Source: Rhabdothermincola salaria (GTDB taxonomy: Bacteria; Actinomycetota; Acidimicrobiia; Acidimicrobiales; Acidimicrobilacustridaceae). From it: a stretch of DNA of 64,000 bases. The stretch covers positions 1 to 64,000 of the forward strand of contig NZ_JAJQXW010000005.1 in the NCBI RefSeq assembly GCF_021246445.1, read 5' to 3'. Made by a program: the position numbers and the translations under genes. Position 1 is the first letter of the stretch; every line of letters begins with the position of its first letter. Below the pieces are notes generated by a model. It saw only the letters and a program-made list of their open reading frames with translations. It was not told where the DNA came from and did not search any database. Positions 47,123-54,863 of this stretch are shown here, piece by piece.

Positions 47123-47635
47123 TCAGTCCTCGATGACGTCGAGGCCCTTGGCTCGGAGGTCGGCGAGGTTGTCGAGCATGGCTTGCAGGACTTCGGGCGG
47201 GTGGCCTTCCCACCGCTCGAGCTCACCGACGATCCGCACCGGGTGGGGGCTGCGGTAGGACCGGGTGACGTTGCCCGGGAAGCGCTTGTTCGTGACGTTG
47301 GGGTCGTCCTCGAACGGGCCCGTCGGCTCGACGACGTAGATGCGCTCGCGTCCCTCGCCGTCGCCGAACGCCACCGCCAGCTCGGCGCCCCAGATGGCCG
47401 GCTCGAGCAACGCTGCGAAGTAGACGTGGTTGGCCACGCGGCCCTCGTGGTAGTTGGACGATCGCCCGGGCACCAGCTCGTCACCGACCGCGAACTCGGC
47501 CCTGGTGCCGTGGAAGAACGGCCCCTCCACGTGCTCGTGGCTGTCGAAGGTGACCGGCACGTGCTCGGTGCCGGCCGATGCCTCGATCGCTTCGGCGATG
47601 GACATCAGGTGTGCTGGCCGCTGGTCGTCCGCCAC
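47123..47635 (-). CDS. arr: NAD+--rifampin ADP-ribosyltransferase
   Basis: PFFHGT, PG..SNY, HVYF, WGAELA, YVVEPTGPFEDDPNVTNKRFPGN.TRSYRS; start uncertain (47635 or 47605). Confidence 0.93.
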   Translation of the reverse strand: MADDQRPAHLMSIAEAIEASAGTEHVPVTFDSHEHVEGPFFHGTRAEFAVGDELVPGRSSNYHEGRVANHVYFAALLEPAIWGAELAVAFGDGEGRERIYVVEPTGPFEDDPNVTNKRFPGNVTRSYRSPHPVRIVGELERWEGHPPEVLQAMLDNLADLRAKGLDVIED

Positions 47636-48671: not shown

Positions 48672-51600
48672 ATGTCGGACGACCTGCTCTCCGGGCTGAA
48701 CCCGGTCCAACACGAGGCGGTGACCCACACCGAGGGCCCGCTGCTCATCGTGGCCGGGGCCGGCTCGGGCAAGACGCGCGTCCTCACCCACCGCATCGCC
48801 CATCTCATCCGCGACCTCGGTGTGTCCCCGTTCGAGATCCTGGCCATCACCTTCACCAACAAGGCCGCCGACGAGATGAAGCACCGGGTGGCCGAGCTGG
48901 TCGGGCCGGTCGCCGAGAAGATGTGGGTCTCCACATTCCACTCGGCGTGCGTGCGCATCCTGCGGCGCGACGGCCACCTGCTGGGCTTCCCGTCGTCATT
49001 CACCATCTACGACCAGGCCGACGCCGTGCGCCTCGCCGGCTACGTCATCCGTGACCTGGGCCTCGACTCGAAGCGCTTCCCTCCCCGGTCGGTGCAGGCG
49101 ATCATCTCGGCGGCCAAGAACGACGGGGTGGGGCCCGTCGAGTACGCCGAGCGGGCCAAGGTGATCTTCGAGCGCAAGATCGCCGACGTCTTCACCGAGT
49201 ACCAGGCCCGCCTGCTCAAGGCCGGCGCCATGGACTTCGACGACCTGTTGGCCAACGCGGTGCGCCTGCTGCGCGAGCACCCCGAGGTGCTGGAGCACTA
49301 CCGGCGCCGCTTCCAGCACGTGCTGGTCGACGAGTACCAGGACACCAACCGGGTGCAGAACGACCTGGTGCTGCTGCTCACCCAGGAGTCCGGTCGGGTC
49401 TGCGTGGTGGGCGATGCCGACCAGTGCCTCCCCGCCGGCACCATGGTGCGCACGCCGACCGGCGAGGTCCCCGTAGAGCAGGTGAGGGTCGGCGACGAGG
49501 TGCTCGGCGCAGACGGTGGCCTCGAACCCGCTGTCGGGCGGGTGCGTGAGGTCGTGCCGGGCCGCTACAAGGGCACCATCGTGACCGTCCACGCGGGCGG
49601 TCGCACCCTCACGGGTACGCCCCACCACATCGTCCCCGCTCGGATGACGCTGAATCCGGGGCAGTGGGTCGTCTACCTCATGCACCGCGCCGACCGCGGC
49701 TGGCGTATCGGCCAGTGCAAGAGCGTCCGCTCCGATGATCGCGGCAACGCGGCCATCGGCGTGCGGGTCCGCGCCAACCAGGAAGGTGCCGACGCCGTCT
49801 GGGTGCTCCAGGTCTGCGACAGTCCCGCGGAGGCGTCGTACTGGGAGGCTCGCTTCGCCGCCGACTACGGGCTGCCGACGGCATGCTTCCACGGGATCGG
49901 GCGGCGGCTCTCCATGGACGAGGAGTGGCTCGAGCGGCTCTACGCCACGCTCGACACCGAGTCCCGAGCAAAGCAGTTGATGAGCGAGCTGCACCTCCAT
50001 CCGGAGTTCCCTCACCACCGCCCCCAGAACGGCGCCCGGCGGGCCACCGTGAACCTCACCATGTTCTCGGACCGACGTCGCTCGCGTGCCGGTCATCGGG
50101 TGCAGTGGTCATCCAACCGGGAGGCGGTCGCCGACCTCCTCCGCGCCGGCGGCCTCGCGGTGCGGCCGGGTCGGCTCCCTGGCACCGCTCGCTTCGAGAC
50201 CAGCCGCACCGACTATGTGGAGGCGGTCGAGCTTGCCCGCCGCGTCGCCGATGCGGGAGGTCTCGCCGTGCGTCGTCGGATGCTCATCGACGGCGAGGTG
50301 TACGACTTCACCCCGCTGGCCCACCTCCGACCCGGCATGGTCCTGCTGGCCGAGGGTGCCAACGGCTGGGAGGAGGTCGCCGTCGACGAGGTGGTCTTCG
50401 ATCACCACGACGGCCCGGTCTACGACCTCGAAGTGGCTGCGACGTACTCGTACGCAGCCAACGGGATCCTCAACAAGAACTCCATCTACAAGTTCCGCGG
50501 GGCGGACATGCGCAACATCGTGGACTTCGAGGATGCCTTCCCCGAGGTCACGGTGGTGCTGCTCGAGCAGAACTACCGGTCGAGCCAGACCATCCTCGAC
50601 GCCGCCAACGCGGTCATCGCCAACAACCTGGGGCGCAAGCCCAAGGAGCTGTGGACGGAGGCCGGGGCGGGCGAGGCGATCGTGCGCTACCACGCCGACG
50701 ACGAGGGCGACGAGGCCCAGTGGGTGGCCCACCAGCTCATGCACCTCCACGACGGCGGCCAGCACCGCTGGGGCGACTGTGCGGTCTTCTACCGCACCAA
50801 CGCCCAGAGCCGGGTCGTCGAGGAGTACCTCATGCGGGTGGGCATCCCCTACAAGGTGGTGGGGGGCACCCGCTTCTACGACCGGCGTGAGGTCAAGGAC
50901 GCCATCGCCTACCTGCGCGCCGCCAACAACCCGGCCGACGAGGTCAGCGTCAAGCGGGTGCTCAACGTGCCCAAGCGGGGCGTGGGCGACTCCACCGTCG
51001 GCCGCCTCGACGTGTATGCCCGGGCCCACGGGCTCACGTTCCTCGACACGCTCCGCGAAGCACCGGCCGCCGGCGTCACCGGGCGCGCCGTGAAGGGCAT
51101 CGAGCAGTTCCTCGCCCTGCACGAAGAGCTCATCGGGCTCATCCCCGAGGGCCCGGCGGCGGTGCTGGAAGCCGCCCTCCAGCGCTCGGGCTACGTGGCC
51201 GAGCTCGAGGCCGAGCACTCCATCGAGGCCGAGGGGCGCATCGAGAACCTGGCCGAGTTGGTGGGCGCGGCGCGCGACTTCGGCTCGGTCGACGAGTTCC
51301 TCGAGCAGATCTCGCTGGTGGCCGACACCGACGACCTCGACGGCGACGAGTCGTCGGTCGTGCTCATGACCCTGCACTCGGCCAAGGGCCTCGAGTTCCC
51401 CGTGGTGTTCCTGGTCGGCCTCGAGGACGGCGTGTTCCCCCACCTGCGCTCCATCGGCGAGCCCGACGAGCTCGAGGAGGAGCGCCGCCTCGCCTACGTG
51501 GGCATCACCCGGGCCCGCGAGCGGCTGTACCTGTCCCACGCCTGGGCCCGCAACATCTACGGCGGCACCCAGTACAACCCGCCCAGCCGCTTCCTCGACG

Positions 51601-52025
51601 AGATCCCCGAGGGCCTGGTGCAACAGATCGAGGGCAACCGGCGGGCGTCGCGGCGACCGGCCAGCGGCAGCTGGGGGGGCTCCGGTTCGTCGGGCAGCAG
51701 GGGCTTCGGCGGCGGCGGGGGCGGCGGATACGGCCGTGGTCGCCGCTCAGAGGACGACGAGTGGACGGGGTCGGTGATCGGCGGCCGCAGCCGTCACCGC
51801 GACGACGTGGTCGAGGCCGCCCTCAAGCCGACCGCGCCCGAGCCCAGCGGTGCCGACAAGCTGGGCCTGGCCGTCGGCGACGACGTGCACCACCAGAGCT
51901 TCGGCGACGGTGTGATCACCGCCATCGAGGGCACGGGCGACAAGACCGTCGCCCACGTGCACTTCGCCGGCGGCGTCGGGTCCAAGCAGCTCCTGCTGTC
52001 GTGGGCGCCGCTCGAGAAGCGCTGA
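48672..52025 (+). CDS. pcrA: ATP-dependent DNA helicase PcrA/UvrD containing an intein
   Basis: AGAGSGKT, TFTNKAA, VDEYQDTN, LEQNYRS, YRTNAQSR, HSAKGLEF, EERRLAYVGITRA, C-terminal Tudor-like domain. Confidence 0.96.
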   Translation: MSDDLLSGLNPVQHEAVTHTEGPLLIVAGAGSGKTRVLTHRIAHLIRDLGVSPFEILAITFTNKAADEMKHRVAELVGPVAEKMWVSTFHSACVRILRRDGHLLGFPSSFTIYDQADAVRLAGYVIRDLGLDSKRFPPRSVQAIISAAKNDGVGPVEYAERAKVIFERKIADVFTEYQARLLKAGAMDFDDLLANAVRLLREHPEVLEHYRRRFQHVLVDEYQDTNRVQNDLVLLLTQESGRVCVVGDADQCLPAGTMVRTPTGEVPVEQVRVGDEVLGADGGLEPAVGRVREVVPGRYKGTIVTVHAGGRTLTGTPHHIVPARMTLNPGQWVVYLMHRADRGWRIGQCKSVRSDDRGNAAIGVRVRANQEGADAVWVLQVCDSPAEASYWEARFAADYGLPTACFHGIGRRLSMDEEWLERLYATLDTESRAKQLMSELHLHPEFPHHRPQNGARRATVNLTMFSDRRRSRAGHRVQWSSNREAVADLLRAGGLAVRPGRLPGTARFETSRTDYVEAVELARRVADAGGLAVRRRMLIDGEVYDFTPLAHLRPGMVLLAEGANGWEEVAVDEVVFDHHDGPVYDLEVAATYSYAANGILNKNSIYKFRGADMRNIVDFEDAFPEVTVVLLEQNYRSSQTILDAANAVIANNLGRKPKELWTEAGAGEAIVRYHADDEGDEAQWVAHQLMHLHDGGQHRWGDCAVFYRTNAQSRVVEEYLMRVGIPYKVVGGTRFYDRREVKDAIAYLRAANNPADEVSVKRVLNVPKRGVGDSTVGRLDVYARAHGLTFLDTLREAPAAGVTGRAVKGIEQFLALHEELIGLIPEGPAAVLEAALQRSGYVAELEAEHSIEAEGRIENLAELVGAARDFGSVDEFLEQISLVADTDDLDGDESSVVLMTLHSAKGLEFPVVFLVGLEDGVFPHLRSIGEPDELEEERRLAYVGITRARERLYLSHAWARNIYGGTQYNPPSRFLDEIPEGLVQQIEGNRRASRRPASGSWGGSGSSGSRGFGGGGGGGYGRGRRSEDDEWTGSVIGGRSRHRDDVVEAALKPTAPEPSGADKLGLAVGDDVHHQSFGDGVITAIEGTGDKTVAHVHFAGGVGSKQLLLSWAPLEKR
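49425..50480 (+). mobile_element. Intein (352 aa) in PcrA helicase motif III
   Basis: VGDADQ|CLPAGTMV...VGDEV...TPHH...VYDLEV...ANGILNKN|SIYKFRGA; removal restores the conserved DQSIY.FRGA. Confidence 0.95.
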
Positions 52026-52498: not shown

Positions 52499-52848
52499 GT
52501 CCCGAGGCTAGGAGGTCGTGGGCTCCACACCGGGAGGGTGGGGTGCCGGTGCTCAGGCCGCGGCGGGGGCCAGGGGCCGGCCGATCGTCCACCGGATGGA
52601 GTCGGGTGGTCTGCGGCACGGCCCGTCCGAAACGCGTGTGGCCGTCTCCGCAGGACTGTCGGTCGCTGCGCAGCGACGCTCCCGGTGCGGGGGGGGGTCA
52701 GGACACGACGCGTGCGCGCATCTGCGCAGGCGCCGGTGGCGTCGGCCGATGTGACGGGTTCCAGGCCGGGCAGATGTGGGCCGGCGGGCCACGCATCGCC
52801 GGTCTGAACTCGAACGCGAATATCCATATGAAACGTGTTGATTCTGGG

Positions 52849-52876
52849 TGGACATCGAACACCTGTCCTGTAGACT
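52849..52876 (+). promoter_or_regulatory. Putative promoter of the DUF222-HNH gene with partial SOS-box-like site in the spacer
   Basis: TGGACA-TCGAACACCTGTCCTG-TAGACT, 7 nt before ATG 52884. Confidence 0.5.
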
Positions 52877-52883
52877 TCGACGC

Positions 52884-54863
52884 ATGGTCACCACGACGCT
52901 GGGGGAACTGGAGGAGGCGGTCGGCGAGCTGACCGTGGCCCCGGTGTCGGCCGACGTGGTCGAACTGTTCGCCCTGCGCGAACGGGTCGAGGTGACCGTG
53001 CTCGAGACCCTGACCGGGTTCTTCGCCACTGGTGGTCACGACGTCGACGGGTACCGCTCCGCGGTGGGTTGGCTGAAGGCCCACGTGGCGCTCACCGACG
53101 GTGAGGCCAAAGCATTGGCGGCCCGGGCCCAGCGGTTGGCGGTGTGGCCGGTGCTGGCCAAGTTGCTGTTCGACGGGTCGCTTGCCGCCGCGCAGGTGGC
53201 GGTCATCGTGTCCGCCGTGCCCCGCGATCTGGTCGACGTGTTCGCCGCGCATGACGAGGAGCTCTCGCCGGTGCTGGTCGGGTTGTGCGTGGGTGACACC
53301 CGCACCGCCATCGACACCTGGGTGAACCTCGCCCGCGACACCAAAGCCACCAGTGACGAGCCGGTCGATCCGCACGACACGACCGTCGATGGGTTCGTGC
53401 ACCTGTCTCGCTACGGGTCCGATGATCGGGGGCGGCTCGACGGCGACCTCGGCCCGGACGCCACCGCCGTCATCGACGCCGCGCTGACCGCCGCCGACGC
53501 CGCCCTCACCGCAGCTCGCGCCGCGGATGGCCATGGTCGCGTTGCCCACCGAGTGAGGTCCGAACGGCTCGGCGATGCGCTGGTCGAGGTGTGCCGCTTC
53601 TACACCGCCCACGTCGACTGCGAGGGGCCCCGCCGGGCCCGCACCCCCCAGCTCACGGCCCTCATGGAGCTCGGTGACCTGTACCGCGCCGCCCTCTACG
53701 GGCTGGGTATCGGTGACCGGGCCGGTCTCGACCGGTTCTTGACCGCCCGCCGCCACGCCGGGCAGCCGGTCTCGACGGTCGAGGAAGGGTTCCTGCGTCA
53801 CGCCCTCGATCACGCCACCGGGCAGGCCACCACCATCGACGGCCACCGCCTGTCCCCCGAGGCGGTCACCACCATCTTCGGGGCCGGCACCACCCTCGAG
53901 CGGGTCATGCTCGCGGAGAGCCAGGTGTTGGACCACGGCCGACAAGTGCGCCTCGCCGCCGGACCGCTGCGTGATGCGATGCTCGCCCGCGACGGCGGCT
54001 GCCGGTTCCCCACCCCCACCGGAGAACGATGCGACGCACCCGTCGCCTGGATCAACGGCCACCACATCACCCACTGGAAACGCGGTGGTGCCACCTCACT
54101 GGTGAACCTCCTCTGCCTGTGCTCCACCCACCACGGGGTCGTGCACCGCGACGGCTGGGACATCACCATCGACGACCACGGGACGGTCACCGTCACCCGA
54201 CCCGACGGCACCACCCTCACCAGCCCACCACCCCACACCCGCCGCCCACCCCGCCTCCCCCTCCACCGCAACGACGACCACCCCGGCACCCTCGATCACG
54301 CCGGGACCCTCGACGCCGCCCTCGCGAACAACGGCGCCACCGGCGCCGAACAGGACAGGCCCGACGACCGAGTCGCCGGACCGAGCCCCACCGACGAGCA
54401 GGCCACGACGAGCCGAGGCGAGAGCGCCGACGACCAGGGCGAGCCCGGGCCGGGAGCTTGCCGCTCAGACGACGGCGACGCAGACCCGGGCGTCTGCGGC
54501 TACGACCAGGCCCGGCTCACGCTCACCCTCCGGCTCCCGGAACCGGAGAGGAGCGGCCATGGTGCTCCGTCGGGTGGGCACGTCAGGTGCGGCAGGACGA
54601 ATCGCGCCGGGAGCACGCCGCTGTGTCGGTCGGGCCGGAGCTACTCCCCGGTGTCGGTGCTGCTGTCGCCGGATTCGTCACCTTCAGCGTCGGTCGTCTC
54701 GGTGTCGTCGGGGTTGAGGTCGACGACCACCTCGCCGTTCTCGGTGACCTCCACCGGGTACGAGATCAACCCCTCGCCGTCGGCGGGCACCACCGTGCCG
54801 TCGCAGGGATCGACGAACTCGGCCTCGGCGTCCTGCCACTCGAGGGTGCAGTCCCGGGACTGA
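52884..54863 (+). CDS. DUF222 / 13E12-like protein with HNH endonuclease domain
   Basis: DGYRS..GWL, GRLDG.L, RLGDALVE, RDGGCRFP..C...HHITHW..GG.T...NL..LC..HH..VH; 3' tail doubtful. Confidence 0.85.
   Translation: MVTTTLGELEEAVGELTVAPVSADVVELFALRERVEVTVLETLTGFFATGGHDVDGYRSAVGWLKAHVALTDGEAKALAARAQRLAVWPVLAKLLFDGSLAAAQVAVIVSAVPRDLVDVFAAHDEELSPVLVGLCVGDTRTAIDTWVNLARDTKATSDEPVDPHDTTVDGFVHLSRYGSDDRGRLDGDLGPDATAVIDAALTAADAALTAARAADGHGRVAHRVRSERLGDALVEVCRFYTAHVDCEGPRRARTPQLTALMELGDLYRAALYGLGIGDRAGLDRFLTARRHAGQPVSTVEEGFLRHALDHATGQATTIDGHRLSPEAVTTIFGAGTTLERVMLAESQVLDHGRQVRLAAGPLRDAMLARDGGCRFPTPTGERCDAPVAWINGHHITHWKRGGATSLVNLLCLCSTHHGVVHRDGWDITIDDHGTVTVTRPDGTTLTSPPPHTRRPPRLPLHRNDDHPGTLDHAGTLDAALANNGATGAEQDRPDDRVAGPSPTDEQATTSRGESADDQGEPGPGACRSDDGDADPGVCGYDQARLTLTLRLPEPERSGHGAPSGGHVRCGRTNRAGSTPLCRSGRSYSPVSVLLSPDSSPSASVVSVSSGLRSTTTSPFSVTSTGYEINPSPSAGTTVPSQGSTNSASASCHSRVQSRD

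Follow-up and report, generated by a model that had tools for sequence, protein, structure and literature searches.

Class-1 inteins such as PI-SceI, PI-PfuI and the Mtu RecA intein carry an in-frame LAGLIDADG or HNH endonuclease. GIY-YIG nucleases such as I-TevI, I-BmoI and T4 Seg belong to group I introns and free-standing genes. According to the available text of two earlier papers, GIY-YIG nucleases were not known in inteins (PMC1564403, 2006; PMC2677866, 2009). The same text of the second paper describes fractured genes, in which a separate GIY-YIG open reading frame (ORF) lies between split-intein halves, and names an in-frame fusion as a possible end state of this arrangement. A preprint (bioRxiv 10.1101/2025.01.02.630785) lists GIY-YIG among the intein-associated endonucleases in its available part, citing the fractured-gene paper among others, with no GIY-YIG in its 784 phage inteins. 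The accessible parts of PMC7765530, PMC5784728, PMC5871332, PMC8772380 and PMC7824862 added no in-frame case. Our literature search found no in-frame GIY-YIG intein; subscription journals and InBase lay outside this search, so the absence is unproven. Here we analysed a 64,000-nucleotide (nt) stretch of Rhabdothermincola salaria (contig NZ_JAJQXW010000005.1, positions 1 to 64,000; the window), in which the pcrA helicase gene is interrupted by a real intein with a probable divergent GIY-YIG endonuclease.

Unlike PI-SceI, PI-PfuI and the Mtu RecA intein, the pcrA intein has no LAGLIDADG or HNH motif and has instead a GIY-YIG-like predicted nuclease with an optional binding domain. In contrast to I-TevI, I-BmoI and T4 Seg, this nuclease lies in frame within a contiguous intein, has VYLM and RIG in place of GIY and YIG, and contains an inserted hairpin; Pfam found no NUMOD, zinc finger or helix-turn-helix in the intein. 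It shares with the fractured genes the association of GIY-YIG with an intein, but it is an in-frame fusion. Annotated inteins of UvrD/Rep helicases (16 UvrD entries in the table of PMC4760082; BASEL phages Bas60 and Bas62) sit in the same host family, and those of Bas60 and Bas62 are homologous over the centre and occupy the same motif III site. In these UvrD records, including the BASEL ones, the intein is annotated and the endonuclease type is not named.

The pcrA precursor ORF (48672..52025, plus strand, as are all parts of the gene) encodes 1117 amino acids (aa) of a superfamily 1A (SF1A) helicase with a C-terminal Tudor domain. The N-extein (251 aa, 48672..49424) terminates in helicase motif III with VGDADQ, and the C-extein (50481..52025) starts with the +1 Ser of SIYKFRG. 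The initial annotation had proposed a 352-aa in-frame insert between them, and 49425..50480 indeed translates in this way; empty alleles join DQ straight to SIY. The exteins are PcrA by TIGR01073 (E 5e-269; 894.6 bits against a cut-off of 911.2, with the insert left in place). Pfam detected Hint_2 and a weak Intein_splicing match in the precursor, and neither Pfam nor NCBIfam matched a family in the intein centre. The splicing domain is predicted to adopt the Hint fold, with an N-part (aa 1-77, 49425..49655) and a C-part (aa 291-352, 50295..50480). The intein motifs read earlier are all present: C1 (49425-49427), T65-P-H-H68 in block B (T65 49617-49619, H68 49626-49628), V332-Y-D334-L-E-V in block F (position F4 is D334, 50424), K351-N352 (50475-50477 and 50478-50480) and the +1 Ser. 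The class-1 residues C1, T65, H68, D334, N352 and S+1 are thus complete, the CTHDN set is kept in 328 of 339 related inteins, and, judged by its sequence, 49425..50480 encodes a class-1 intein, which would self-splice from PcrA.

Behind the N-part of the Hint domain lies the GIY-YIG-like domain (aa 78-158, 49656..49898), a predicted nuclease by fold prediction, motif register and conservation, followed by a two-helix linker with a conserved PH motif (aa 159-205, 49899..50039). The string from which a GIY-YIG-like spacing had been suspected is there as V82-V-Y-L-M-x6-W93-R-I-G. This suspicion is backed by the fold search and the register of the motif, as well as by conservation and by evolutionary footprints, without a significant sequence-profile match. 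The domain is predicted as a three-stranded sheet with flanking helices, as in the GIY-YIG superfamily. Slx1 and HIGLE tie as its best structural matches, and in the match to T. maritima UvrC aa 78-153 fall on UvrC 13-88, with Y84 on Y19 and E141 on E76 if gap-free ends are assumed.

In the active site described in PMC3045582, the GIY Tyr is the general base and the YIG Tyr (Lys in Hpy188I) contacts the phosphate; its other members are the YIG Gly, an Arg on a helix, a further Tyr/His and a Glu that binds the metal. The residues of note in the intein domain are Y84 (49674), R94 (49704), G96 (49710), R116 (49770), E120 (49782), E141 (49845) and P151 (49875). R94 lies ten residues past Y84, the same as from Tyr63 to Lys73 in Hpy188I. 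R116 is on helix 112-120 and the residue four positions on is Glu, not Tyr/His; without coordinates the helix can be paired in more than one way. A register of the same lengths would allow helix 112-120 to be the second helix of UvrC, with the hairpin in place of the arginine helix. Since two registers are possible, the equivalence of R116 to the catalytic Arg is tentative. The 60 strongest coupled pairs (no shuffle control) include R116 with T152, which suggests that R116 faces the active site.

Conservation of this residue set is strong. Y84 is kept in 428, G96 in 435, E141 in 433 and R116 in 423 of 436 rows; R94 and E120 fall within the same range (423-435/436), and 319 of 339 full inteins have all six. 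The ratio of nonsynonymous to synonymous substitution (dN/dS) is 0.064 for the domain (95% interval 0.042-0.088; 13 close pairs); Hint gives 0.158 and the C-terminal domain of the centre 0.129. The loci were found through the GIY-YIG-like domain itself, so some bias persists in this value even after removal of the columns used to find them (0.073). No HNH family was matched by Pfam, and the conserved set is Y/R/G/R/E/E instead.

Several searches gave no significant match. Foldseek with the N-terminal domain gave nothing at E <= 0.001, no significant GIY-YIG profile match was found in Pfam or PHROGs (19 members scanned), and hhalign against GIY-YIG reached 7.6%, which is not significant. A PDB sequence search with the centre had no match, and an Atlas search with the centre gave, besides unnamed clusters, a single weak lead to T5orf172, with a score of 0.77 for 12% of members. 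We regard the GIY-YIG ancestry of the centre as very likely.

The initial annotation considered the architecture unusual and asked for the same intein elsewhere. It is not peculiar to this genome: the centre (aa 78-289) belongs to a widespread family, with 358 long proteins by word search, 1,039 clusters at 50% identity, 428 stretches in genomes of the Genome Taxonomy Database and 54 phage records. A first viral scan with exact words had no match, and a profile scan found 11 viral loci. Close named homologues are from Acidimicrobiales, Microthrixaceae and Ilumatobacteraceae; other named hosts are Crassaminicella, Calothrix, Deinococcus and the Justusliebigvirus coliphages. Among 147 new listed cluster proteins, every one long enough to reveal its host is an SF1-type helicase. 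The insert lies at DQ|S or DQ|C in nearly all of these, and several carry extra copies at other motifs. Giant UvrD-like proteins of 1200-2500 aa (P0172, P0236, P0242, P0254, P0255, P0337-P0341) hold two to four inteins, several of them of the GIY-YIG-like family at different motifs; P0242 and P0254 have an additional ordinary LAGLIDADG intein at Walker A.

Short members of about 276-297 aa retain the N-terminal GIY-YIG-like domain and lack the C-terminal one. Some sit at motif III of a helicase and others elsewhere in helicases, and a second type of helicase and a phage DNA methylase are also among the hosts; for the viral ones, the host types were read by hand from motifs in individual rows, not by family scan. 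The methylase case is a phage gene for a ParB-like plus DNA methylase protein with the intein at HEP|C (L091/L092, 2489-3100), so the nuclease domain also occurs outside helicases. L089, L090, L093, P0337 and P0338 lack the C-terminal domain and end in Gly-Asn, and at L089 a single phage helicase contains two inteins. Another 43 short matches map onto parts of the intein profile and were read as fragments; no free-standing form of the nuclease domain was demonstrated among them. If the assignment holds, more than 1,000 clusters of helicase inteins in which Pfam sees no endonuclease have a nuclease of a third class; this would fit the idea of separate invasions of inteins by different nucleases. 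A nuclease so compact (~215 aa) and modular, for which nature offers many target variants, could also serve engineering.

The distribution of the intein is patchy. The centre is present in 18 of 301 genomes of the same class (after removal of an opposite-strand false match, L020) and the N-terminal domain in 15 of 301 genomes of the same phylum. From 61 related genomes the best 30 loci were picked by C-extein. Of these, 5 are full and 2 short, and the remaining 23 are empty and join DQ to S directly, so the intein-less alleles to be sought in relatives do exist. Even one same-genus pair differs (G301 with the intein, G303 without), and one assembly (G175) has two intein-bearing pcrA copies (L010, L021), the second without the Y84 and R116 equivalents. 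Locus L076 (genome G393) was excluded from all analyses, and none of the conclusions depends on G393, G349 or G431.

Alleles have also been swapped. A set of 292 distinct intein-bearing helicases contains 141 pairs whose exteins are at least 95% identical; the inteins are 83-100% identical in 121 of these pairs and only 60-75% in 20, 13 of the 20 being one protein against one cluster. Approximately unbiased (AU) tests reject shared histories for groups that were named after viewing a fast tree. In coliphage records at least 95% identical, 36-37 of 56 carry the intein (derived from tallies). We compared four plus and four minus UvrD alleles of Justusliebigvirus (L052, L219-L225); of the 93 extein sites that vary, 21 are fixed differences. 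All 21 lie within -27 to +51 nt of the insertion site, 15 of them downstream, and they include the +1 codon (Ser-to-Cys). This tract is the pattern expected of gene conversion from a divergent donor. An SVYGW flank common to two actinobacterial clades had been taken for co-conversion and was dropped, since their inteins are not sisters. In the decayed copies L013, L018, L019, L047 and L048 the nuclease residues are lost and the splicing residues kept, and L011 and L012 each lose one. Footprints of spread into empty alleles are thus present, and the intein is probably still mobile. In public sequencing runs at most 22% of words matched; near-identical short contig pieces span both intein junctions, and no intein-skipping joint was among the matches listed, which is uninformative.

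The intein has more A/T third positions than the exteins, as noted earlier: third-position G+C (GC3) is 0.875 against about 0.965 (Fisher p 5e-8). Of 109 intein-bearing loci, 105 show the lower GC3; it is thus a trait of the family that does not date the Rhabdothermincola copy, and we rejected it as a sign of recent arrival. Lateral arrival holds for the family as a whole, with GC3 as weak evidence for it.

The penultimate Lys pointed out in the initial annotation is real, and 199 of 207 relatives have His there (Lys-Asn in 7 of 207); Lys there has a precedent, as PMC5050341 reports Gly, Lys or Ser at this position (G6) in mycobacteriophage inteins, where the block-F His can assume its role. 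The loss of the block-F His as well is the stranger point. In the pcrA intein both are replaced (K351 at G6; Y341, 50445, at F13, which is His in most relatives), and this distinguishes it from the mycobacteriophage inteins. The F13/G6 pair in 339 inteins is His/His in 273, Arg/His in 34, Tyr/Lys in 15, Phe/Lys in 1, His/Lys in 2, His/Arg in 1 and other in 13, so that an aromatic F13 occurs only with Lys. The 16 Tyr/Phe-plus-Lys sequences fall into five 90% clusters, spread over about three branches, and are not independent. One origin of Lys-Asn (AU p 0.007) and a single clade for the double-His loss (AU p 0.012) were both rejected. Recombination between alleles may explain this scatter, since domain identities within the inteins are mosaic: in P0004, compared to P0023 and P0006, the N-terminal Hint shares 86% identity with one allele group while the remainder is nearer another, suggesting recombination within the intein. 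The double loss is unusual, not established as unique, and this lineage is a natural test of Asn cyclisation without either assisting His.

We think it likely that this class-1 intein carries a divergent GIY-YIG homing endonuclease acting on intein-free pcrA. The centre would cut such alleles near the motif III site, slightly away from the insertion point and perhaps downstream, and repair would copy the intein across. Y84 would be the general base, R94 would take the YIG-Tyr position and G96 that of the YIG Gly, E141 would bind the metal, R116 would be the catalytic Arg, and E120 would substitute for the second Tyr/His. In splicing, Lys351 would replace the penultimate His in Asn352 cyclisation with no block-F His assisting. 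For the conditional splicing control of PcrA suggested in the initial annotation, the analysis gave no evidence. Site-specific homing activity is likely, somewhat less so than GIY-YIG ancestry. A ready test pair exists in two phages of E. coli K-12, Bas62 with the intein and Bas61 without it, whose exteins are about 98% identical.

The rest of the centre is a basic alpha/beta domain (aa 206-290, 50040..50294; 17 K/R against 9 D/E) predicted as beta-beta-alpha-beta-beta-alpha(-beta), which is likely DNA-binding and is absent from members of ~280 aa. It may read the target through its beta-sheet as an add-on binding module, like that of I-TevI. The LAGLIDADG-like half suggested for it earlier fits in topology, but comparing profiles gave no significant match, and the centre lacks the LAGLIDADG helix with its catalytic acid. 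PF14528 had no match in the centre, though the same scan detects it in other inteins of multi-intein helicases. No LAGLIDADG-only chain was among the matches listed for aa 206-290 (50 rows, dominated by Hint), which excludes nothing, and an Atlas search with the domain had no match. A genuine, catalytically dead LAGLIDADG half left from an older intein endonuclease, in a chimera of GIY-YIG and LAGLIDADG-binding parts, is conceivable but somewhat doubtful; it refines the homing explanation and overlaps with it. The element order, the conserved strand residues R225, R247, R256 and E258, and a local profile alignment in the expected register (HRVQWSS to RISYAST, AGGL to RFGI) speak for it. The coupled pairs 223-262, 225/227-258, 247-256/258 and 216-223 give the sheet order 1-2-4-3, which is the LAGLIDADG order. 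Another possibility is that the GIY-YIG-derived centre nicks one strand or cuts branched DNA like Slx1 and HIGLE, so that homing starts from a nick or a helicase-stalled fork and not from a site-specific double-strand break. The tie between these two matches, the short members at several different sites and the non-canonical active-site set (E120, no terminal Asn) would agree with this, but insertion is site-specific and the C-terminal domain of long members is under purifying selection. The short tract of fixed differences fits a local cut without telling a nick from a break, and we consider this explanation unlikely.

Slightly less likely still, the conserved domain could be a structural or regulatory module, for example in splicing control of PcrA, with the intein moving by recombination or phage transfer. 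The weak structural scores, the near confinement of the long form to SF1A helicases and the loss of both C-terminal His, which could slow or condition splicing, are compatible with this. However, the domain is lost or decayed in copies whose splicing residues persist, is also present in a DNA methylase and in another type of helicase, and belongs to an intein with empty alleles in the majority among close relatives, with allele replacement and with a difference tract centred on its insertion site. It is also improbable, more so than the preceding alternatives, that splicing is impaired and much PcrA stays unspliced while a paralogue covers its function. The available part of PMC4031507 states that the F13 and G6 His both assist Asn cyclisation, the intein has no block-B Arg substitute (I69), and the genome has other UvrD-family genes (8 matches). 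Yet the same source gives another G6 residue for about 5% of functional inteins and does not require either His in all of them, the Tyr/Phe-plus-Lys state recurs, the exteins are intact and 90-99% identical to those of His-bearing relatives, and the genome has just one close PcrA. In its fullest form, the homing explanation would add a third class to the homing endonucleases fused in frame to inteins, namely a large GIY-YIG branch that is unannotated, actively homing and built around a rewired Y-R-R-E-E site. This nuclease would work alone in ~280-aa inteins at several sites, would be joined in SF1A helicases by a captured dead LAGLIDADG half as DNA reader, and would here be placed in an intein whose splicing does without both C-terminal His. 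As a whole we consider it tentative.

About 1 kb upstream of pcrA lies a gene for an Arr-type rifampin ADP-ribosyltransferase (47123-47635, minus strand; PF12120, E 5.5e-44). Downstream, a long ORF with an HNH domain (52848-54863, plus strand; E 1e-4) resembles the actinobacterial DUF222/HNH repeat genes. Two LAGLIDADG_3 matches elsewhere in the genome (C2:474159-474413 and C1:1223788-1224015) are likely ordinary inteins.
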